NCBI GenBank assembly: GCA_977017645.1
Contig: OZ360231.1
Span: 63,240,001 to 63,304,000, forward strand
Origin: Torpedo marmorata
Taxonomy: Eukaryota
Length of the DNA stretch: 64,000 nucleotides
Direction of reading: 5' to 3'
The translations under genes and the position numbers were made by a program. Positions within the stretch are counted from its first letter, which is position 1. Each line of letters opens with the position of its first letter. The notes beneath the pieces are model-generated. The model searched no databases, was not told the origin of the DNA, and saw nothing but the letters and a program-made list of their open reading frames with translations. Below, in pieces: positions 7,469 to 60,257 of this stretch.

Positions 7469-8342
7469 CAGGAAAAAATAAGCAAAATATACACGTGATC
7501 ATGATATGCCAATTCTGATGTTGCTGATCAAATTCCATTCACAACTTAAACATTCGCCACCTTAGTCACTTGCACTATAGAACAACCCTTTGGTACTACC
7601 AACAAGGTACAGTACCTCTCAAATTCACATCCTGGATCATTCGGATTGCAAAAGGCTTCAGGTACATGGGAGCAGCACAATATCTTGACCTGGAAACGTA
7701 TCATCATACCATCTTCGACGCTCGATCTAAATACTGAAACTCCCTGCTGAACAGGACTTCAACGGAAAGCAGGCAGGGCTCAAAAGGATGATTAGGGATG
7801 AGCAATGAATGCCAGCCTTGTCTGCATTTCCAACATTATGAATGAAAAATGAGGATAAATTCCCCCGGCAGAACTAAGTTCAAATGATATCAAAAGTTAA
7901 AATACTAAGTCTACTTTTTTTTTATGATGGATGTGGAGGTAAAATAAATCACTTAATTTATGAGCCAGAGATTATATTATTCAACACTAACTTTACTTTT
8001 GCATTGTGGAGATCTCAGTAGATAAATGTTTACTGCTGAGCTCCTGTGACCTGCTGTCCAAGAGGCAGTGAACCAGTAAACAGTGCAGCCCTTCTGAAAG
8101 TTGCTACTCTGTGCTATCAGAACCATTACTCATATCAACAAGTTAATGGAGGTGCTGAAACAATCTGAAATAACTTCTAAAATTGAAATTCACCACAAGG
8201 GACTTTTGGCTTGTTAGCTTTCTCATTATCTGGGTATGTTTTGCTTGCTAGCTATTGCACATTTTTGTATTTTCAAAACCGGCTCATAAACTGGAGAAGT
8301 GTTCTCATGTTACTTCTTCTCGTGCTTTATATGAATATGTCC

Positions 8343-8963
8343 TGTAAGAGCCGTAGGCTCGTTTACTTACCGTTGTTGCGGCGCTCCGATGTCTTGTCGG
8401 GCCTTGGAGCGCCGCGTAGTTGTTGTGGATGTTGCTGGGCCGTCCTCGGCCCGTTCGGAGCGCTCGCGTTGTCTGCGGGCCGCTATCAGCCCGTTCTTTG
8501 ATATGCGCATGCGCGGGAGTGCCGACGGGCACATGCGCAGTATGGAGCGACGTCATTGTGCGCGTGGGAGGCTGGGAGTTGTAGTATGCGCGGGGTAGGA
8601 TGCGCAGAGCCATTAAAGAGAGAGAGAACAAGAAAGGAAAAGATGTATGGAGGGTGAGTCTGGTCTCCACATCTTTATTGACCGTTTTATATCGAGTTAT
8701 AATGTTTTTATAACTTCAACATCATCTACAGTGTTTCATATCGTTTTGGAATTGTTTAAGGAATAATTTAAAGGAACTCATCATACATCGTTTACAAGAA
8801 CTGTTTATATTAAAGTCATTGAAGATTACTGCAAGTCATGTGTGAAAATAAAGGTTTTGAACATATTGGACTTTGTTAGTAAATTAATTAAAACGCGTCA
8901 AAAGCAAGGACCACACTTAGCCTCCAGGTGACTATTGGTGGAGCGAAGTCACCGTTACTTATA
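8343..8963 (+). repeat. 5' LTR of BEL/Pao element
   Basis: TGTAAG...CTTATA; direct repeat of 13552-14172 with two visible substitutions (8531/13740, 8591/13800). Confidence 0.95.
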
Positions 8964-9408
8964 GTCAATAAAGGGCTGGCTGTTTGGAACAGAAGTTTGA
9001 AGGAAAGAAGATAGAAAAAACTCTCTGTGCTTTGGACTGATATAAATGGTGGCCATTTTGGAGATGCCTCCAGTTGGGGGCAGTTTGTAATCCACTTCCA
9101 TCTGCCATGAATAACAGCCAGAGAGGGATTTAAAGCTTCAAATCTTATAATAAAGTGTCCTATAAATACGTTGGAGAAACTATTTTTGGAAAATCAGTGA
9201 TATTAGTGACGGATGTTGTGGTTGAAACTCGTTTGTGGATTGCAGCACATTACAGTCATTTGAAGTGGTAGGCATAAGTCTGTGGACTCCTTCTGTGTAT
9301 CTTTAGCAAGTAAGAACACAGATTGGAATTGCTGCCGCTGGTCCATTGGGGACTGTTGTTTGACTAGTGTTGTGTATGCTTGAAGGAAAGAGGAACAAGA
9401 CGAGTAAA

Positions 9409-11790
9409 ATGGCCGCAGCAGCCACTGATACAGCAGCTACTGATATATCAGCAGCTGACGCAGCAACCGCTGATGTTGCTGTTGAGGACCAACGTATTGA
9501 AGACATGAAGGTTTCAGATATTAAAGAAGAATTGAAGCGACTGAATAAGGACATAAGTGGAAATAAAAAGGTTCTTATTGAAAGATTGAAGCAGGCAAAG
9601 GATGAAGAGGCAGCTTTATTAGTGGAACAAGAAGATAACTTGGAAATGGCTGAAATTGTATCAACAAATGATGAACAATTTGAATTGGATAAAGAGGTAA
9701 GTATGAAGACAACATATGAACTGCAGGACGAAATACAAGCAAGTGACAGTGTCTCAAATGCTGAAAGCAGGAGAAGCAAAAGAAGTTCTGGTTCAAGCTC
9801 CAGAGTTTCTCGTACTTCAAGTTCTGCATCGTCACGTACAAAGGTTGATGTTAAATTGGCTGCTCTTCTTGCACAACAAAAAACTCTTAAGGATAAATTT
9901 ATTTTAGAACAAGAGGAGGAGCGGAAAAGACAAGAGGAGGAGCAGATAAGACAAAATGAGAATCAGCTAAAGGAGCGGCTAAGACAAGAAAAGGAGCAGC
10001 TAAGACAAGAGAAGGAGCAGCTAAGACAGAGAAAAGAACAGCAGGAGCTGGAAGCAAACATTGCTATTGCCAAGGCAGAAAAGAAAGCAATAGAAGGTTC
10101 AATGGTATCTGGTGTTAGCAGTAAATCATCTAAATTGTCTAATAATAAAAGGTCATATTTAAAAAAGGAGTCACAGGAAAAGAAACCAACCAAAAGGATA
10201 GATATTTTAGAACCAAGGATACAAAACTTACATATACAAGGACAAACCTTTCACGAGCATATTGGTATCGAGTCACATGTACCATTAGTAACATCTGAAA
10301 GCAAAGCTGCGGATTGGGTACGGCCGAACGAAGCAGCTTCTTTGTTATATGAGTCAAGCATCAGAAATATGGAAGAAACTACACCAGTAAGGTTTCCAGA
10401 TACATTGCATACAACACGAGACAGTGAACAGAGTAATGTATTGAAATCCAAGGAAAGACAAAATGAAATTGCTGCATCATTGTTTCAGTTACAGTCTCTC
10501 TCTTCTTTACCCAAGAAAGAGATACAAACTTTTGATGGTGATCCACTTCAATATCAATCGTTTATGAGATCTTTCAAACGCAATATTGAAGATAAATGCC
10601 AAGATCGAGATGAATGTCTTTATTATTTGGAAATGTTCACAAAGGGACATCCAAAAGAACTGGTAAAAAGTTGTAACCAAATGTCTTCAGGAAGAGGATT
10701 AGACAAAGCTAAGGCTTTATTGGAACAATATTTTGGCAACAAACATCGAATTGCTTTAGCTTATATGGATAAAGCTCTTAAATGGACATCAATAAAACAA
10801 AATGATGTAAAGGCTTTGCAAGAGTTTACTCTGTTTTTAAGAGGATGTTGTAATGCTATGGAAGAAATCGATGGTATTCGTGAGCTTGATGTGCATAGTA
10901 ATATGCGAATCATTTTAGAAAAATTACCTTACAAGGTATGGGATAGATGGAGAAATTTGGCTTGTGATTTACAAGTAAATTACGGTCGAAAAATTACTTT
11001 AAAGGATTTGGTAAATTTTCTTGAACGACAAGTGTATGTTGAAACAGATCCACTATATGGAAATACCAGAGATAATTCAATGAGCAAAGATGTAAGGAAG
11101 TCTAATTCACAGTCTAGTCCGAAAATGAAAAGGAGTACGTTTGCTACTAATGTGTCAGTTATAAATAAGGAAAAGGAAAGTTCTGATAAAAAGAGTTGTT
11201 TGTTCTGTAAAGGTGGACATACTTTAGAAATGTGTTTACGATTGGAAAAGAAGGAACATAAGGAAAAGATCGCTTTCTTAAAGGAAAATGGGATATGTTT
11301 TAGCTGTTTGTGTAAAGGGCACATCAGTAAAAACTGCGAGAAGCGAATTAATTGTAACATATGCAATTTGAAACATCCTAGAATTTTGCATATCCATAAC
11401 AGAAACAAGGAATTGGAAAAGGAGCAAACAGAAACAAAGGAAACAACAGAAAATAATGTTATAACCTCGGTTCAGACAAGTGGTCTTACTGGGGCCGGGG
11501 TGAATAACTGCAAACTTTCAATAGTACCTGTACAAGTCAAAGCCAAGAAAGGGGATGCAATAGTAAAAACATATGCATTTCTAGACCCAGGCAGCACTGC
11601 ATCTTTTTGCACGGAAGGACTAATGAATAAACTTAATATTCAAGGAAAAAGATCAAGAATTATGTTAAAAACCATGGGTCAAGAAAAGGTTGTTGAAACT
11701 AACATTGTTTCTGGCTTAGAGGTTGCTGGATTGGATGACAAAAATTTTGTGATCTTCCAAGTGTATATACTCAGAAGACTATGCCTGTGA
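9409..11790 (+). CDS. BEL/Pao Gag-protease polyprotein: N-terminal SAP-like domain, coiled coil, DUF1759-type capsid, zinc knuckles, aspartic protease
   Basis: IEDMKVSDIKEELKRLNKDISGNKKVLIERLK (SAP pattern); LPKKEIQTFDGDPLQYQSF; CLFCKGGHTLEMC, CFSCLCKGHISKNC, CNICNLKHPRILH; YAFLDPGSTASF. Start taken at the ATG at 9409 (ORF opens 9367). Confidence 0.9.
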   Translation: MAAAATDTAATDISAADAATADVAVEDQRIEDMKVSDIKEELKRLNKDISGNKKVLIERLKQAKDEEAALLVEQEDNLEMAEIVSTNDEQFELDKEVSMKTTYELQDEIQASDSVSNAESRRSKRSSGSSSRVSRTSSSASSRTKVDVKLAALLAQQKTLKDKFILEQEEERKRQEEEQIRQNENQLKERLRQEKEQLRQEKEQLRQRKEQQELEANIAIAKAEKKAIEGSMVSGVSSKSSKLSNNKRSYLKKESQEKKPTKRIDILEPRIQNLHIQGQTFHEHIGIESHVPLVTSESKAADWVRPNEAASLLYESSIRNMEETTPVRFPDTLHTTRDSEQSNVLKSKERQNEIAASLFQLQSLSSLPKKEIQTFDGDPLQYQSFMRSFKRNIEDKCQDRDECLYYLEMFTKGHPKELVKSCNQMSSGRGLDKAKALLEQYFGNKHRIALAYMDKALKWTSIKQNDVKALQEFTLFLRGCCNAMEEIDGIRELDVHSNMRIILEKLPYKVWDRWRNLACDLQVNYGRKITLKDLVNFLERQVYVETDPLYGNTRDNSMSKDVRKSNSQSSPKMKRSTFATNVSVINKEKESSDKKSCLFCKGGHTLEMCLRLEKKEHKEKIAFLKENGICFSCLCKGHISKNCEKRINCNICNLKHPRILHIHNRNKELEKEQTETKETTENNVITSVQTSGLTGAGVNNCKLSIVPVQVKAKKGDAIVKTYAFLDPGSTASFCTEGLMNKLNIQGKRSRIMLKTMGQEKVVETNIVSGLEVAGLDDKNFVIFQVYILRRLCL

Positions 11791-13130
11791 ACGAAGGAAA
11801 TATTCCTCATCAAAGTGATATTCATCATTTAGCTTATCTGTGGAAGGTTTATTTACCTGAAATTAATTCTGAGATAGAAATGCTGATTGGTTCAGATGTG
11901 CCAAAGGTTTTGGTACCAAAAGAAGTAATAGAAAGTAAAAGGAATGGACCTTACGCTATTAGAACCATACTTGGTTGGGCAATCAATGGACCAATGGAAA
12001 GAAATAATGATATTGCTCAGGAACAGGTAGCGATAAATGTTAATAAAATTTCAGTTGAGAAATTTGAAGAGTTAAGAGAAGAGCAAAAAACCGTGAATAA
12101 GAAAATCACTTATGAAGAAAAGAAAACAGATCAATGTGAAAATAAATCAGTGGTATTTAAAACAACATTAAAGAAATTAATTTCGTCAGAAATGGATGAA
12201 AGTGAAGTATTAGAAGATGTTGCAAATAATACTGTTGATCATTCATGTGTAATTGAATCAAATACAGGAATAAAACAAGTGACTGAAAACAAATCTGAAT
12301 GTAGATTTTGTATTTCAGAGATTACAATTGACAAAACTAATGAAGAATTATTGCAATGTGATGTAAAAATGGAGAACATAGAAAATTGTGCTGATGGAAT
12401 AAAGAATAATGATTCAGAGAACAAAATGTTGAAAGGAGAATTGAAAATATTAGATAATCAAGAAAACAGTAAACAAAAAGATTTAATTGTAAGTAAAACT
12501 CGCAAAGTCAGAAAGCGGAAGAAAAGAATAACTGCTGAAGAAATGAATACAGTTATTGAGGAAAGAGATTCAGCATTATCAAAATGTAAAAGGTTGGAGG
12601 AAGAGATTAATGTTTTAAAAGAGAACAAGTTATTGGTTAATAACACAAAACAGTTGACTTTAAAAATCAATCAAGAATGTAAATTGAATGTTCAACAATT
12701 AACAATGCAGAAAGAATGTGATATTGCATTGCAGATATGTAACAAACAAGATGAAGAAATTAAAAAATTTCAAGTTTGTCGCGACAGGATTGACAATGGA
12801 AATATCAATGTACCATATGATATTTTGACTTCAGATCAAATTATTAATTTCTCGGAAGGAGCTGAGACTGAATTGAAAGTTGCAAAATTGGATTTAGAAT
12901 TGCAGGAAAGAGCCATAGAAACCAGAGTGGTTAAACAGACCTGTTTAAAATCGAAAGAATCAGATAAATATTCAAATTCTAATTCTAAGAGTTTAAATTC
13001 TTCACATGAGAAGTGGAATACTGAAGAAAGGAATAAAGTGAAACGACGTGCTGAAGAAGTGCCTCATGTTAAATTCAAAAGGAAAACTGTATCTATTTTG
13101 TCTGAAGAAGATTTGAGGTTTACTGATTGA
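11748..13130 (+). CDS. -1 frame continuation: end of BEL protease region fused to a coiled-coil segment resembling MIPOL1
   Basis: CDLPSVYTQKTMPV...MLIGSDVP...GPYAIRTILGWAINGP is canonical BEL; later RITAEEMNTVIEERDSALSKCKRLEEEI matches recalled MIPOL1; no YxDD, RNase H or integrase DDE. Confidence 0.75.
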   Translation, partial: CDLPSVYTQKTMPVNEGNIPHQSDIHHLAYLWKVYLPEINSEIEMLIGSDVPKVLVPKEVIESKRNGPYAIRTILGWAINGPMERNNDIAQEQVAINVNKISVEKFEELREEQKTVNKKITYEEKKTDQCENKSVVFKTTLKKLISSEMDESEVLEDVANNTVDHSCVIESNTGIKQVTENKSECRFCISEITIDKTNEELLQCDVKMENIENCADGIKNNDSENKMLKGELKILDNQENSKQKDLIVSKTRKVRKRKKRITAEEMNTVIEERDSALSKCKRLEEEINVLKENKLLVNNTKQLTLKINQECKLNVQQLTMQKECDIALQICNKQDEEIKKFQVCRDRIDNGNINVPYDILTSDQIINFSEGAETELKVAKLDLELQERAIETRVVKQTCLKSKESDKYSNSNSKSLNSSHEKWNTEERNKVKRRAEEVPHVKFKRKTVSILSEEDLRFTD

Positions 13131-13149
13131 CATTTTAACTCAGATTTGA

Positions 13150-13349
13150 AGATAAAAGAACTTTAAAGAGACATTGTGATTGTTATGGATGGTTCAACTT
13201 CAAGAAATTCCTGGTTACTTGGAAAAGATTATTGAGACTTTTCAAGACAAAGAGGACTTGTGCGTCAAGTGCGAATTAAAACTAAGACTGGTTTTCTAAA
13301 CAGACCTATTAATAAGGTCTGCCTTTTGTTGGAGACAGAGGAACTTTGA
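13150..13349 (+). pseudogene. BEL/Pao integrase C-terminal remnant (DUF5641-like), frameshifted
   Basis: DIVIVMDGSTSRNSWLLGK / GLVRQVRIKTKTGFLNRPINKVCLLLE* is the characteristic BEL pol end. Confidence 0.85.
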
Positions 13350-13551
13350 TAAATGTGAACTGACTTTATTTGTTGTTGTACATTTCACAGGTTACAGACT
13401 TTTGTTTAATCAGAGTTATGGTAAACTCTAGATCTATGAAGAAGGAAGAAAGAAGATTTGTATTGTTTTGAATTATGGTTATTGTTATTTATAATTTATA
13501 GTGTAATTATTATTCAAGACATTACGTCTAATTATAATAATTAGGGGCCGG

Positions 13552-14172
13552 TGTAAGAGCCGTAGGCTCGTTTACTTACCGTTGTTGCGGCGCTCCGATG
13601 TCTTGTCGGGCCTTGGAGCGCCGCGTAGTTGTTGTGGATGTTGCTGGGCCGTCCTCGGCCCGTTCGGAGCGCTCGCGTTGTCTGCGGGCCGCTATCAGCC
13701 CGTTCTTTGATATGCGCATGCGCGGGAGTGCCGACGGGCGCATGCGCAGTATGGAGCGACGTCATTGTGCGCGTGGGAGGCTGGGAGTTGTAGTATGCGT
13801 GGGGTAGGATGCGCAGAGCCATTAAAGAGAGAGAGAACAAGAAAGGAAAAGATGTATGGAGGGTGAGTCTGGTCTCCACATCTTTATTGACCGTTTTATA
13901 TCGAGTTATAATGTTTTTATAACTTCAACATCATCTACAGTGTTTCATATCGTTTTGGAATTGTTTAAGGAATAATTTAAAGGAACTCATCATACATCGT
14001 TTACAAGAACTGTTTATATTAAAGTCATTGAAGATTACTGCAAGTCATGTGTGAAAATAAAGGTTTTGAACATATTGGACTTTGTTAGTAAATTAATTAA
14101 AACGCGTCAAAAGCAAGGACCACACTTAGCCTCCAGGTGACTATTGGTGGAGCGAAGTCACCGTTACTTATA
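13552..14172 (+). repeat. 3' LTR of BEL/Pao element
   Basis: Near-identical to 8343-8963, preceded by a polypurine tract and followed by TSD TGTCC. Confidence 0.95.
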
Positions 14173-14989
14173 TGTCCTAAAGTTTGTCATCTGTTACAAA
14201 TTCATACAAGTTCCTTGATGTCCGTTGCTGCTTGAAGTAGCCTGAATATCTTACTTTTAATGGGAGTTTCACCATACTGCTGCTGCCTGATACTCGAAAT
14301 CACCTTCTCTTGCCAAATGGAGCTGCACCTACTGTGATGGGTTTGGGCACATTAACCATGTCACCTCGGTAACATAACCAATTCCAGCGTAGCCAAGCAC
14401 AGTTCAGCAATCATGCCCATGCCTGCACTTTGAAAGACCAGGTTCCCATTTCCCTGCTTCTCCCCCCGACCACCCCCCACCCCACCCCCACACCAATTCC
14501 TTGAAATTTTCTTCTTTACCTAATTTATTTTTAAACATTACAAAATAATTAGTTCACACTTCCCTTTCAGTCTTGGCCATCTAGACCACAAAGTTTCAAA
14601 CAACTTTAAAAAAAAAAATTGAAATCTCCCCTGGCTTTTTTTTGCCAATCACTACAACTTTTATGGAAGGAAACCACAAACGCCTGCAGTAATCTGGTGC
14701 AGTGATTAGGTACGAATGGTCAGTTATTGTTATTCTTAACATTTTCCCCACCCTTGAGAACAGGCACTGGGGGACTCCAAAAACTGGGACCTCCTCCAAA
14801 TTGTCAATATCATATCAGTAGTACAGTAGAGCCAACTTAACTGCCCATGTGGATACATTCACAACAGTCCAACCTTGCTGGGAGTTGTCCAAAAGAGGTA
14901 AAAAAAAGTTGAAAAATATAACCTTTAGGTGATCCTCAAGGGGCAGGAGTAAGAGGACACACAAGCTTCACTGACTTTGTAAAGCTCTT

Positions 14990-18425: not shown

Positions 18426-19411
18426 CTGCAATGTTGTGAACTGGCTTCTCATAACCATGAAAAAGAATATAACTCAGATTTATTAGAGAGAACTGACTGA
18501 AGAAAACCAATATTCATTGTATAGGAGCATTACTGCAGCTCATTGATCACTAATGTTCTAGATTCTACACAACTCAAACAAGATTTGGTGATGACATTAA
18601 CTTGAATACACTAGTTATAGACCAAGGATAGTTTGTGTGCCTCGTAGAAATGCACAACTCACAATGAAATTATATTGGCACTGGTGTAGATTGGTTAAGC
18701 TGTTAAATATGGTTCCTGTTTATGACACGCAATATTTCACTATTTATTCCCAAATTGTGTACTTGGACTACCGTGCAGCGGAACCTTGATTTACAAATTT
18801 CAGAACCTACTGTCCCTTTCATGACTATGGTCTGGACAACAAAGCCAATTGAGGTGATTTGTTTGGGCCTAGGAAGATATGAAATGAAACTTGAAGGCTT
18901 AATGCGAATTTTATATTGGAGATTTAAGTGGCCAGAGTTGAATTCTTCTCTTTGACAATTGAATATAGGCTGTAATAAAAATTACAAGAAACAATGGAGA
19001 ATTTAATTCCCCTAATGAATCTTAATAGCACTGACAAATTAAAAATGAATTTAATGTAACCAAAATGAACCCAATGCTCTTTTATTTTGCTCTCTTAAAT
19101 CCAGAGTTAAATCATATATTGCTTGGAAAGTTTTCATGAGGTTTAGGAGCCACACAAAATCTGCTGGAGGAACTCAGCGGGTCAAAAGTCCCCCAGCATC
19201 TGCAGTCTCTCATGTGTCTTCATGAGTTTTCAGACTAAGTTTTAGCTACAAATTTAAGGGTAGTTCTTCAGAACTGCTGTATATATACCGTATATTTCGG
19301 CGTATAAGTCGAGTCTTGAAACCCTCAAAAATCTCTCAAAAAACTGGGGTCGACTTATACGCCGGGTATACCTTTGAGACCTTAAAATCAGCTCAAAAAC
19401 TACTCCACGCT

Positions 19412-19632
19412 GATTCGGCGTATAAGTCGACCCTTGAAAACACGATTCGGCATATAAGTCGACCCTTGAAAACACGATTCGGCGTATAAGTCGACCCTTG
19501 AAAACCCGATTCGGCATATAAGTCGACCCTTGAAAACCCGATTCGGTCTATAAGTCGACCCTTGGAAACCCGATTCGGCGTATAACTCGACCCTTGAAAA
19601 CCCGATTCGGCGTATAAGTCGACCCTTGAAAA
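19412..19632. repeat. Subterminal tandem array, 7 x 32 bp, containing the TIR core
   Basis: Unit GATTCGGCGTATAAGTCGACCCTTGAAAAC(A/C)C starting at 19412, 19444, 19476, 19508, 19540, 19572, 19604. Confidence 0.95.
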
Positions 19633-19695
19633 ACCAAAAAAAAACCCGACTGCAACAAATTTTCATTGACATTTTTATTGAAAACAACAAGACAT

Positions 19696-53050: not shown

Positions 53051-53612
53051 AGAACTATACAAATATTTGATGGAGAAAATATTGCAGTAAGATGGCGAAC
53101 CAAGCATTGGGACTACCTGGAAAGAGCTGGCCCAGTCTCCAATAAATCAATGGCTTATTTTGTTGTTCTGTTCTATGGTTCGAAAACAAATCTATTGTTT
53201 CTGGCAAAGCATTCCATGGTCTGTCAACCAAATACTCAGCCACTTTCCCTTCTTTTTAAAAAGCTATCTTCTTGTCATCTGATTATCAATTTACTGACCA
53301 GAATACCCAAATTATCTTCCTTACATACCTCAAACTTCATTAACAAACTTGCCTTCTTGACCCAAGTCTCTTTCAATATGTATTTCTTGTGGAAGGGAAA
53401 CCAAAAGAGAAAATGCAAACAAACAATAGTGGTTTCAAATAGTTTCAAACTTGAAAGCAAAATTAGGCAAGCCAAAAATAAAGAACTGCAAAGAATGAAA
53501 GGAAAAGTTAACATCGTTTGAGATTGATACTTTAAATTCACCTGGACACAGTTAGTTCAAAACTGTACAATGGGAATTGAGGCATCAGTTTTGGCTTGGG
53601 AATAGCATTGTC

Positions 53613-55829
53613 AATGGAGTCAGGAGGTTGTGGGTTCATAATGGAGTCAGGAGGTTGTGGGTTCATAATGGAGTCAGGAGGTTGTGGGTTCATAATGGAG
53701 TCAGGAGGTTGTGGGTTCATAATGGAGTCAGTAGGTTGTGGGTTCATAATGGAGTCAGGAGGTTGTGGGTTCATAATGGAGTCAGGAGGTTGTGGGTTCA
53801 TAATGGAGTCAGGAGGTTGTGGGTTCATAATGGAGTCAGGAGGTTGTGGGTTCATAATGGAGTCAGGAGGTTTGAGTTCATAATGGAGTCAGGAGGTTGT
53901 GGGTTCATAATGGAGTCAGGAGGTTGTGGGTTCATAATGGAGTCAGGAGGTTTGGGTTCATAATGGAGTCAGGAGGTTGTGGGTTCATAATGGAGTCAGG
54001 AGGTTGTGGGTTCATAATGGAGTCAGGAGGTTGTGGGTTCATAATGGAGTCAGGAGGTTTGAGTTCATAATGGAGTCAGGAGGTTGTGGGTTCATAATGG
54101 AGTCAGGAGGTTGTGGGTTCATAATGGAGTCAGGAGGTTGTGGGTTCATAATGGAGTCAGGAGGTTTGAGTTCATAATGGAGTCAGGAGGTTGTGGGTTC
54201 ATAATGGAGTCAGGAGGTTGTGGGTTCATAATGGAGTCAGGAGGTTTGAGTTCATAATGGAGTCAGGAGGTTGTGGGTTCATAATGGAGTCAGGAGGTTT
54301 GAGTTCATAATGGAGTCAGGAGGTTGTGGGTTCATAATGGAGTCAGGAGGTTGTGGGTTCATAATGGAGTCAGGAGGTTGTGGGTTCATAATGGAGTCAA
54401 GAGGTTTGGGTTCATAATGGAATCAAGAGGTTTGGGTTCATAATGGAGTCAGGAGGTTGTGGGTTCATAATGGAGTCAGGAGGTTTGAGTTCATAATGGA
54501 GTCAGGAGGTTTGAGTTCATAATGGAGTCAGGAGGTTGTGGGTTCATAATGGAGTCAGGAGGTTTGAGTTCATAATGGAGTCAGGAGGTTTGAGTTCATA
54601 ATGGAGTCAGGAGGTTGTGGGTTCATAATGGAGTCAGGAGGTTGTGGGTTCATAATGGAGTCAGGAGGTTGTGGGTTCATAATGGAGTCAGGAGGTTGTG
54701 GGTTCATAATGGAGTCAGGAGGTTGTGGGTTCATAATGGAGTCAGGAGGTTTGAGTTCATAATGGAGTCAGGAGGTTGTGGGTTCATAATGGAGTCAGGA
54801 GGTTGTGGGTTCATAATGGAGTCAGGAGGTTGTGGGTTCATAATGGAGTCAGGAGGTTTGAGTTCATAATGGAGTCAGGAGGTTGTGGGTTCATAATGGA
54901 GTCAGGAGGTTGTGGGTTCATAATGGAGTCAGGAGGTTGTGGGTTCATAATGGAGTCAGGAGGTTTGAGTTCATAATGGAGTCAGGAGGTTGTGGGTTCA
55001 TAATGGAGTCAGGAGGTTTGAGTTCATAATGGAGTCAGGAGGTTGTGGGTTCATAATGGAGTCAGGAGGTTGTGGGTTCATAATGGAGTCAGGAGGTTGT
55101 GGGTTCATAATGGAGTCAGGAGGTTTGAGTTCATAATGGAGTCAGGAGGTTTGAGTTCATAATGGAGTCAGGAGGTTGTGGGTTCATAATGGAGTCAGGA
55201 GGTTGTGGGTTCATAATGGAGTCAGGAGGTTGTGGGTTCATAATGGAGTCAAGAGGTTTGGGTTCATAATGGAATCAAGAGGTTTGGGTTCATAATGGAG
55301 TCAGGAGGTTGTGGGTTCATAATGGAGTCAGGAGGTTGTGGGTTCATAATGGAGTCAGGAGGTTTGAGTTCATAATGGAGTCAGGAGGTTGTGGGTTCAT
55401 AATGGAGTCAGGAGGTTGTGGGTTCATAATGGAGTCAGGAGGTTGTGGGTTCATAATGGAGTCAGGAGGTTGTGGGTTCATAATGGAGTCAGGAGGTTGT
55501 GGGTTCATAATGGAGTCAGGAGGTTGTGGGTTCATAATGGAGTCAGGAGGTTGTGGGTTCATAATGGAGTCAGGAGGTTGTGGGTTCATAATGGAGTCAG
55601 GAGGTTGTGGGTTCATAATGGAGTCAGGAGGTTGTGGGTTCATAATGGAGTCAGGAGGTTGTGGGTTCATAATGGAGTCAGGAGGTTGTGGGTTCATAAT
55701 GGAGTCAGGAGGTTGTGGGTTCATAATGGAGTCAGGAGGTTGTGGGTTCATAATGGAGTCAGGAGGTTGTGGGTTCATAATGGAGTCAGGAGGTTGTGGG
55801 TTCATAATGGAGTCAGGAGGTTGTGGGTT
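53613..55829. repeat. Intronic minisatellite, 27-bp unit (about 80 copies) with 26-bp variants
   Basis: CATAATGGAGTCAGGAGGTTGTGGGTT, variant ...GAGGTTTGAGTT. Confidence 0.97.
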
Positions 55830-58467: not shown

Positions 58468-59090
58468 CATATTTAAATAAACTTAGGTAATTCACTTCAT
58501 TATGTATCAGAACCAGCCAGGTCATCTATCAGTGATTTTAGCTCTCTTATTTTCTCTTGGCACAACTTCACTAACTGGCCATGTCCTGCAGCTCTTCATT
58601 TTGCATATGTTCTACTTCGTAGTTGGTGATCTAACTTTGAACTGCCTGGTTTTATAGCTTTCACCTTCCTTTGTTCAGGTTTACTCTCCCTAACTGCCAT
58701 TAGCCAAAATGACCTTATTGGCAACTGATCCCCATGAAATCCCAGGCCACAGAGTGTCAGAGATATTCCCTTTATCCTATCCATTTCTTCCCCACCTTCT
58801 CTGCAACTTAGAACCAGCTGGTCCCACTTTTTTCCTCGTTCTGAAGGGCCTTCAACCTGAAATATAATCTGTTTGTATTTCCACAGCTGCTTTCTGAGCT
58901 GTTGAGTGTTTATTTCAGAATTCCACCTTCTGCACTTTTGTTTGATTTTCAAAGAAATGTTATGTTTGAACTAAATGTCAGAAATATACCATATTCAGTT
59001 TCTGAAACTTGCTAATTCAATTGCTTTCATACAGGAGAGTAGCAGGGGTACTATAATTGACACAATACACCTAGATGGATAAGGACACAC

Positions 59091-60149
59091 AGGTGTTGGC
59101 ATCATGTGGCCCCAGTGTCAACTGTCATCTTTAGGGGAAGGTGTTGGTATCATGTGGCCCCAGTGTCAACTGTCATCTTTAGGGGAAGGTGTTGGTATCA
59201 TGTGACCCCAGTGTCAACTGTCATCTTTAGGGGAAGGTGTTGGTATCATGTGACCCCAGTGTCAACTGTCATCTTTAGGGGAAGGTGTTGGTATCATGTG
59301 ACCCCAGTGTCAACTGTCATCTTTAGGGGAAGGTGTTGGTATCATGTGACCCCAGTGTCAACTGTCATCTTTAGGGGAAGGTGTTGGTATCATGTGACCC
59401 CAGTGTCAACTGTCATCTTTAGGGGAAGGTGTTGGTATCATGTGACCCCAGTGTCAACTGTCACCTTTAGGGGAAGGTGTTGGTATCATGTGACCCCAGT
59501 GTCAACTGTCACCTTTAGGGGAAGGTGTTGGTATCATGTGACCCCAGTGTCAACTGTCACCTTTAGGGGAAGGTGTTGGTATCATGTGACCCCAGTGTCA
59601 ACTGTCACCTTTAGGGGAAGGTGTTGGTATCATGTGACCCCAGTGTCAACTGTCATCTTTAGGGGAAGGTGTTGGTATCATGTGACCCCAGTGTCAACTG
59701 TCACCTTTAGGGGAAGGTGTTGGTATCATGTGGCCCCAGTGTCAACTGTCATCTTTAGGGGAAGGTGTTGGTATCATGTGACCCCAGTGTCAACTGTCAT
59801 CTTTAGGGGAAGGTGTTGGTATCATGTGACCCCAGTGTCAACTGTCACCTTTAGGGGAAGGTGTTGGTATCATGTGACCCCAGTGTCAACTGTCACCTTT
59901 AGGGGAAGGTGTTGGTATCATGTGACCCCAGTGTCAACTGTCACCTTTAGGGGAAGGTGTTGGTATCATGTGACCCCAGTGTCAACTGTCACCTTTAGGG
60001 GAAGGTGTTGGTATCATGTGACCCCAGTGTCAACTGTCACCTTTAGGGGAAGGTGTTGGTATCATGTGGCCCCAGTGTCAACTGTCACCTTTAGGGGAAG
60101 GTGTTGGTATCATGTGACCCCAGTGTCAACTGTCATCTTTAGGGGAAGA
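59091..60149. repeat. Intronic minisatellite, 48-bp unit (about 22 copies)
   Basis: AGGTGTTGGTATCATGTG(A/G)CCCCAGTGTCAACTGTCA(T/C)CTTTAGGGGA. Confidence 0.97.
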
Positions 60150-60257
60150 AAACAACACAATTTGTTTTAAATTATTTGCATAGAATAATTAAAAAGATTC
60201 ATTTGCAAAGATACATTCAGAAACAACAGAATTTAATGCATACTTGGCAAAACGTAC

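Follow-up and report, generated by a model that had tools for sequence, protein, structure and literature searches.

The 64,000-nucleotide stretch of Torpedo marmorata DNA analysed here (the window) contains an open reading frame that begins in a retrotransposon protease and continues where pol would be expected. What occupies the place of pol, from what template was it copied, and why has it stayed open? On sequence comparisons, we give a probability of roughly 0.78 to an account in which spliced RNAs of three host genes were captured by a BEL/Pao LTR element, the MIPOL1 piece among them was derived from a circular RNA, and the resulting non-autonomous element was copied by a helper.

Structure of the element and sources of its cargo

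Positions 8343-14172 of the window form a young BEL/Pao LTR element, flanked by direct repeats of TGTCC as a 5-bp target-site duplication (8338-8342, repeated at 14173-14177). The 5′ LTR (8343-8963, plus strand; 621 bp, TGTA...TATA) shares mostly 90-95% of its letters with LTR stretches in the pol-bearing partner described below, and it matches the 3′ LTR (13552-14172, plus strand) at 619 of 621 sites, i.e. with two mismatches. ORF1 (9409-11790, plus strand, in an 808-aa open frame at 9364-11790) encodes a SAP domain (9496-9597), the BEL Gag domain DUF1759 (10531-10953), a zinc knuckle and the first part of an aspartic protease. ORF2 (11739-13130, plus strand; 463 aa in the ORF list) holds the remaining protease region and then the entire host cargo in one frame. 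The two overlap at 11739-11790, where a frameshift in the protease region ends ORF1; Gag and the ORF2 region form one continuous frame in 11 of 14 full-length copies fetched. The in-frame chimera described in the initial annotation of this DNA is thus confirmed for the cargo and the protease part of ORF2, but the window copy as a whole is split into 808 aa and 463 aa.

A Pfam scan of the window copy detected SAP, DUF1759 above cut-off, and a weak aspartyl protease and a DUF5641 match below it. As first noted from the letters alone, RT, RNase H (Peptidase_A17) and the integrase core (rve) were not found in this copy, nor in another one scanned (L069); their place is taken by some 1.08 kb of host sequence that stays in the reading frame of Gag and protease. 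An integrase C-terminal remnant (DUF5641; E = 1.6e-4, just below cut-off) and a 3′ UTR with a short purine tract follow at 13168-13551 (plus strand), 95-96% alike to the partner and untranslated, with stops in all three frames. Likeness to the partner resumes at 13168 and not at 13150, where the integrase tail had been placed. The replaced segment, thought at first to be as AT-rich as the remaining element, is AT-richer (GC 0.28 vs 0.35), and it is also AT-richer than its host source. The LTRs, 5-bp duplication and DUF1759 of the element are those of BEL/Pao elements, and the family has a single gag-pol ORF with Peptidase_A17 and DUF5641. Unlike usual BEL/Pao elements, the window copy lacks the RT, RNase H and integrase core, its LTR ends in TATA, and no TGG-type primer site lies at 8964-8990 after the 5′ LTR. 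Since this stretch starts with GTCAATAAAG, as it does in the partner (L059/L060), the priming of both may be unusual; no tRNA genes were found in the 64-kb window. The window element is a non-autonomous derivative of a BEL/Pao LTR retrotransposon.

Two features of gag were seen in passing. A 219-aa antisense frame (9303-9962, minus strand) lies over its 5′ end, measures 300-417 aa in many young copies and partners and always has the same ending; it may be a mere mirror of the repeat-rich sense frame. Short tandem repeats of QLRQEKE-like units at 9900-10050 differ in unit number among copies, which likely accounts for ORF lengths of 1270-1370 aa.

The middle of the cargo comes from MIPOL1. The MIPOL1-like peptide on which the initial annotation was built is real and lies at 12483-12779. 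When ORF2 residues 235-400 were searched against 5.8 billion proteins, 3 of 293 candidate proteins matched, all of them MIPOL1, the best being that of the ray Narcine bancroftii (67% over 102 aa, E = 2.5e-32). At the DNA level the segment matches three separate exons of the host MIPOL1 gene at 80-86%, which excludes coiled-coil composition bias, an artefact considered from the start, as the source of the match. Host MIPOL1 is a single gene on contig C40, of which 360 kb was read; its exons, labelled A-G in gene order, share 86-96% identity with Narcine MIPOL1 where the gene is conserved. The 3′ part of exon D2 and exons E and F stand in normal splice order at 12479-12784 (plus strand), and the match crosses their junctions, from which introns of 29 kb and 78 kb in the host gene are missing, in agreement with the proposed capture of a spliced cellular mRNA by a BEL/Pao element. 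Although MIPOL1 was correctly named as a captured gene, the match runs beyond the segment first assigned to it, and other host genes flank it.

Upstream, a BRCA1 fragment occupies 12082-12486 (plus strand) and comprises one short exon and the start of the large central exon. The host exons, on contig C61, match 12082-12195 and 12213-12486 at 72-86% DNA identity and the 8.7-kb intron between them is missing; at the protein level the piece matches residues 204-358 of skate BRCA1 (51% over 157 aa, E = 1.1e-22). BRCA1 was found via the cargo of a middle-aged copy, which gave 44 matches among 1.84 billion representatives, one of them to the 5′ part. This match replaced an earlier reading of the 5′ cargo as decayed MIPOL1 exons C-D, which had rested on weak protein likeness. 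The RING and BRCT domains are neither within the fragment nor were they ever captured. Three BRCA1 codons present in skate and missing from the host gene are retained in the cargo.

Downstream, an Elongin A fragment (12929-13142, plus strand) draws on two exons, separated by an in-frame deletion of 111 nt, and contains the ORF stop at 13130. The exons, from the host gene on contig C41, match 12929-13090 at 79% and 13087-13142 at 84% identity. In the oldest copies, the cargo matches five Elongin A exons on C41 at 89-98%, and PF06881 (Elongin A) scored above cut-off, with 136 of 150 scored places matched; this conserved domain has been lost from the younger classes. An Elongin A paralogue on contig C25 was rejected as donor (68-78% against 89-98% for C41 in old copies). 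Exon skipping was likewise rejected for the gap, which measures 111 nt against 115 nt for the exon, and copy L116 retains exon sequence. The Elongin A-like gene on C25, at G000:C25:175318134-175337565, has introns of its own and resembles the donor gene at about 75%. In the ESM Atlas, the 3′ piece gave only matches of 0.85 or less. No chimeric protein was found among the 44 representatives (five looked up by name), among the 120 listed of 668 matches, where query coverage was at most 26%, or among longer proteins in a weak search that also missed BRCA1.

Matches on three contigs thus account for the whole replaced segment as host cargo. All three pieces are in sense orientation with intronless exon joins and without a poly(A) tail. 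The frame is kept at three of the four capture joins; the fourth, back to the integrase tail, terminates the ORF. Short imperfect likeness was seen by eye at all four, and the BEL-BRCA1 and MIPOL1-Elongin A joins contain about 10-20 nt without a matching source. That the cargo is a capture of three spliced host RNAs is practically certain. The founding capture would have been a single one, by one or several rounds of template switching inside a particle.

The copies could instead be ordinary LINE-made processed pseudogenes that lodged in LTR elements by chance. A preprint survey of retrocopies (10.64898/2026.06.26.734816), in the part drawn on here, places MIPOL1 in the top five for retrocopy number in cartilaginous fishes and links retrocopy numbers to non-LTR elements. 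However, the cargo takes the place of pol rather than interrupting it and carries no poly(A), its joins are identical across the copies examined, and 13 of 14 full-length fetches lie between paired LTRs. Pol replacement, shared joins and paired LTRs refute this origin for the Torpedo marmorata genome, and we consider it next to impossible.

Capture by template switching has precedents. Bs1 of maize is an LTR element of low copy number. It carries fragments of three unlinked host genes in a chimeric ORF (PMC13317346, PMC5131818, sections drawn on here), and the ray element resembles it in this fusion; unlike Bs1, it is an animal BEL/Pao element with one exon-scrambled piece, no fewer than 17,552 copies that fall into three age classes, and an identified co-active helper. 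Tan et al. 2016 (PMC5131818), in the sections drawn on here, describe LTR-mediated capture of host mRNA by template switching, including multi-gene chimeras and a mosquito BEL case, in which host mRNA replaces part of an internal ORF at microsimilar joins and the chimeras can remobilise. The ray cargo is likewise intronless host mRNA in place of part of an internal ORF and has no poly(A). The cases in those sections are mostly young and at one or few sites, whereas the ray chimera is the dominant form of its family and makes up about 1.6% of the genome or more. A search of the article for the string 'circ' gave no occurrence. We found no description of the element itself in the literature covered, which excludes repeat databases and subscription journals, and no precedent there for the combination of three genes with a circRNA-type piece or for its scale.

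The scrambled MIPOL1 piece and its template

After exon F, the MIPOL1 cargo continues with exons A and B (12785-12938, plus strand, with an 81-nt in-frame deletion across their junction), which lie upstream of D2-E-F in the host gene. The exon order is therefore scrambled: at a back-splice-type junction (12784-12788, plus strand) the donor of exon F joins exactly to the acceptor of exon A, 206 kb upstream, at the first AG of a TAG-CAG tandem acceptor. The reading frame is kept across this join because donor and acceptor are both of phase 2. None of 19 young and none of 30 middle-aged copies has a gap across the junction. Among 15 loci of the oldest class, the junction predicted from the host gene is exact over 19 nt in seven and one base off in three; four others do not span it, and at the last the best match is a nested younger copy. 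The host-predicted 22-mer occurs 178 times in the genome and its reversed control not at all. The exact 22-mers belong to old copies that preserve the host-predicted back-splice unaltered; the 178 copies would be genomic fossils of an ancient back-splice.

The MIPOL1 cargo (D2-E-F-A-B-start of C) lies wholly within exons A-F, which would make up a 780-nt circle. In the oldest class exons A and B are complete in it and the beginning of C is present too before Elongin A follows, and the BRCA1 piece there is longer, with four exons. Nothing from the big exon or exon G was found in the MIPOL1 cargo, and no rolling-circle repeat was seen in a cargo that spans under one turn of the circle. The introns flanking the presumed circle share a single weak inverted repeat within 10 kb (69%, 188 nt). 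The element thus has a reversed exon join at true splice sites and exons of the circle only, which are the sequence criteria for circRNA retrocopies. The simplest reading is that the MIPOL1 piece was probably reverse-transcribed from a back-spliced circular RNA.

The same letters could arise from a linear template, if reverse transcriptase jumped while copying linear mRNA or if the template was a linear transcript made by trans-splicing or with repeated exons. Read on linear mRNA, the F-to-A junction shows a 3-nt microhomology (AGC), where a template switch would yield identical letters, and switching has been frequent in this lineage (four capture joins, many deletions). Dong et al. 2016 (PMC4897178) also caution that non-colinear joins can have other origins. 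A jump must however strike donor and acceptor together, as do only 12 of 16,039 backward jumps with at least 3 nt of microhomology in the captured exons (7.5e-4), and of the two AGs in the tandem acceptor it must also have hit the upstream one. In the host genes, all six capture ends lie inside exons, and no MIPOL1 cargo comes from beyond exons A-F. Trans-splicing and a circle are indistinguishable by DNA alone. Taken together, we regard a linear template as improbable. Ordinary forward splicing of a former tandem duplication of MIPOL1 exons A-F in the host also predicts an identical junction, but exons C and G match once each in the assembly, exons A-G are single and in order over the 360 kb read, and a 206-kb duplication would have to be gained and then cleanly lost; this origin is very hard to credit.

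A circular template remains our preferred reading. Dong et al. reported 33 high-confidence mouse circRFWD2 pseudogenes with LTRs 'enriched in the flanking regions' and left the mechanism open. The ray element shares with them a reversed exon-exon junction, the lack of poly(A) and LTR sequence nearby; unlike in circRFWD2, the junction forms part of a complete LTR element, shares the frame of gag and was amplified along with the element. If the reading is correct, it shows one definite way for circular RNA to get into a genome, namely as cargo of an LTR element. No paper on circMIPOL1 was found in the literature covered. The host MIPOL1 introns (contig C40, L023-L042) themselves contain four cargo-bearing copies of the element of different ages, three of them in gene sense and one broken by a 10-kb insert.

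Copies, age classes and the pol-bearing partner

The MIPOL1 peptide gave 32,327 first-look candidates in the 6.2-Gb assembly, which is not a copy number. A 22-mer across the protease-BRCA1 junction, with four variants allowed, occurs 17,552 times, so that there are at least 17,552 cargo copies; at 5.8 kb each, with every copy taken as a full element, these would amount to about 100 Mb or about 1.6% of the assembly. Four cargo copies were met in the 456 kb fetched for host genes, in line with tens of thousands. About 87 of the best-matching 150 of the 32,327 candidates have a single frame of at least 1250 aa by hand count. Among the 14 full-length young copies, the 11 with a single ORF encode 1271-1332 aa, and 13 have LTR pairs that are 99.35-100% identical; their intactness is inflated because they are the top of a protein-query list, a sample biased towards intact frames. 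One young copy (L072) carries an inverted rearrangement that joins two element halves. Head-to-tail arrays of elements with about 5-5.5 kb spacing were observed at G000:C1:1497827-1517704, at C31:58888108-58899324 and at L013/L014.

Pol-bearing partners were located by a Peptidase_A17 search as frames near 2050 aa. All six that were fetched have one ORF of 2043-2134 aa and LTR pairs 97-100% identical; they share the LTR, gag-protease and 3′ end with the window element and differ from it only at 12087-13167. The window gag-protease is about 95% alike to that of the partner. In the single partner scanned (L060), Peptidase_A17, an integrase zinc finger and DUF5641 scored above cut-off, and RVT_1 and rve below it. 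The partner sequence at the equivalent of the protease-BRCA1 junction occurs 95 times; the resulting ratio of about 185 to 1 is approximate, since the partner was counted with one variant only. Mobilisation in trans, as initially suggested, is strongly supported by this young partner with common LTRs, gag and 3′ end, and the element is likely copied by the enzymes of such rare pol-bearing genomes. An old pol-bearing BEL family was dismissed as the present helper, being only about 70-73% alike; it gave 7,936 first-look candidates, with no frame above 853 aa among the best 150. An old and broken pol-bearing BEL element, from a family with thousands of decayed copies, was met at G000:C40:64517363-64523151 (L042-L043), and downstream of it is a Gypsy-type element that by eye has integrase-like sequence ahead of its RT.

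The chimeras fall into three age classes, young, middle-aged and oldest, the last recognised from 12 sequences fetched among 137 weaker matches of the genome search that gave host BRCA1. Copies of the oldest class resemble the window at about 67-78% in their backbone; their cargo is 92-96% identical to the host pieces. Single older copies have LTR-pair identities of 99.7, 97.1, 94.6 and 90.5%, which shows long activity of the family. In a tree of 39 zinc-knuckle-protease sequences (two short rows dropped, only one old pol-bearing copy included), the young chimeras have the six young pol elements as their sister group, and these pol elements fall within the older chimeras (100/99). Gag-protease dS is 0.066 between young pol elements and the young chimera, and 0.50 between the oldest and the young chimera. 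Because the cargo was captured once and young pol elements nest among chimeras, the backbone must have been exchanged; we infer that the gag and LTR sequences were repeatedly swapped by recombination with co-packaged pol-bearing genomes.

Replication-defective acutely transforming retroviruses carry gag-onc fusions that replace pol, depend on helpers and recombine with them. The ray element likewise has host sequence in the gag frame in place of pol, a helper and recombination with it; unlike these retroviruses, it is a BEL/Pao element without env and with no sign of selection for the cellular activity of its cargo. We think it likely that the gag-BRCA1-circMIPOL1-ElonginA chimera came to dominate its family, that its copies number in the tens of thousands and make up as much as about 3% of the 6.2-Gb genome, and that it was sustained across three waves through recombination with a helper about 200 times rarer. 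Gene capture by an animal LTR element can then found the most successful branch of a family rather than a dead end.

At polarisable residues, the oldest cargo has the Narcine-specific state at none of nine, the host-specific state at two and an older state at four. These few sites suggest that the capture took place on the host branch after its split from Narcine bancroftii. Contigs of four public runs (three organism labels, three studies; none on record as RNA) cover the element, and single contigs among them span its protease-BRCA1-MIPOL1 (X3), BRCA1-MIPOL1 (X4) and back-splice (X2) joins; the organism labels do not fix the number of species. No paper on an LTR expansion in rays or Torpedo, or on BRCA1 retrocopies in cartilaginous fishes, was found in the literature covered.

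Selection on the frame of the cargo

The initial annotation had also taken the stop-free segment as a hint of selection. This is correct for the open frame, which is protected, but a test for amino-acid constraint on the MIPOL1 part gave no sign of it (dN/dS against the host 0.72-1.07). In the young cargo dN/dS against the host is 0.78 for BRCA1, 0.79 and 1.02 for MIPOL1 and 0.74 for Elongin A. Private changes of middle-aged copies give 0.81-1.36, not clearly different from the values of the young cargo. For gag-protease it is 0.24-0.30 between the oldest and younger classes, over a span similar to that of the cargo. Most pieces are slightly below 1, BRCA1 reaches 0.49-0.50 in the two older classes, and Elongin A has 0.31 in the oldest class, where changes are few and host changes are included; such values leave room for a weak protein constraint, which may act on the cargo. 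A low singleton pN/pS in young copies (0.06-0.27, MIPOL1) was discarded for ascertainment bias. Substitutions in the young class are AT-biased (150 GC-to-AT vs 61 AT-to-GC), with no such bias in the oldest class. After capture the cargo would have undergone AT-biased drift, and in-frame deletions that shortened it.

All ten lineage-wide deletions (285, 24, 120, 81, 195, 3 and 111 nt plus 3, 3 and 24 nt) are multiples of three (1.7e-5 at one in three), as are four deletions common to 3-5 oldest copies, against 8 of 31 private indels in frame. These counts come from pairwise alignments of natural copies and three internal rows of an automated census; the census itself (20 of 34 shared indels in frame) was set aside for alignment overrun beyond piece ends. 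Alongside about 203 fixed amino-acid changes, the young class has a single fixed stop, which lies 16 codons ahead of the older end; of the old private changes, 22 in 279 are stops (P ~1e-6). Within three small clusters of middle-aged copies, frameshifts are shared (-2 in two copies, -5 in two, and -2 near the end in five), suggesting that frame-broken copies were occasionally copied or duplicated. With high confidence, selection acts on the open frame of the cargo. Near-neutral amino-acid drift (about 0.75-1.0) together with a protected frame indicates that its target is likely read-through and not MIPOL1 function, and the cargo is likely without BRCA1, MIPOL1 or Elongin activity.

With an early stop, much of the RNA would go untranslated as a long tail, and such tails are known to trigger nonsense-mediated decay. 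Selection would keep ribosomes moving through the cargo nearly to the 3′ end, and the cargo would serve as translatable filler that spares the RNA such a tail. Survival of the RNA by avoiding decay is the most likely reason for the kept frame, at about even odds. Its main rival is a structural role of the coiled-coil tail: the BRCA1-MIPOL1-Elongin A product could work as a protein, by aiding Gag co-assembly, by favouring its own RNA or by interfering with host repair or transcription. This would fit the three in-frame joins of sense pieces, the frame kept through about 20% divergence, the D2-E-F block that lost 3 nt only (81-285 nt in its neighbours), and an excess of the chimera over its partner by two orders of magnitude. 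The dN/dS of young cargo against the host (0.74-1.02, against 0.24-0.30 for gag-protease), the loss of the Elongin_A domain and the lack of RING and BRCT argue against it, and we consider a protein role unlikely. The lineage would be a natural experiment that parts selection for translation from selection for protein sequence, and its thousands of dated copies permit testing why a parasite holds a meaningless frame open.

The cargo copies will mislead annotation and read mapping in ray genomes, and one may speculate that sense fragments of BRCA1, MIPOL1 and Elongin A present by the thousands could steer piRNA silencing to their parent genes. They may also explain the high retrocopy rank of MIPOL1 in cartilaginous fishes, which the preprint survey (10.64898/2026.06.26.734816) interprets, in the portion drawn on here, as selective filtering of regulator genes; BEL, BRCA1 and ELOA go unmentioned in that portion of its main text. 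Other top retrocopied genes outside mammals, given in its section 6, are candidates for similar element-borne cargo, namely SUDS3, SDF2L1, SLU7 and ZNF276 in cartilaginous fishes and PIWIL2 and DND1 in amphibians. Elsewhere in the window, tandem arrays were observed at 53478-55800 (unit of about 27 bp), 58947-60254 (about 48 bp) and 19380-19667 (about 32 bp).
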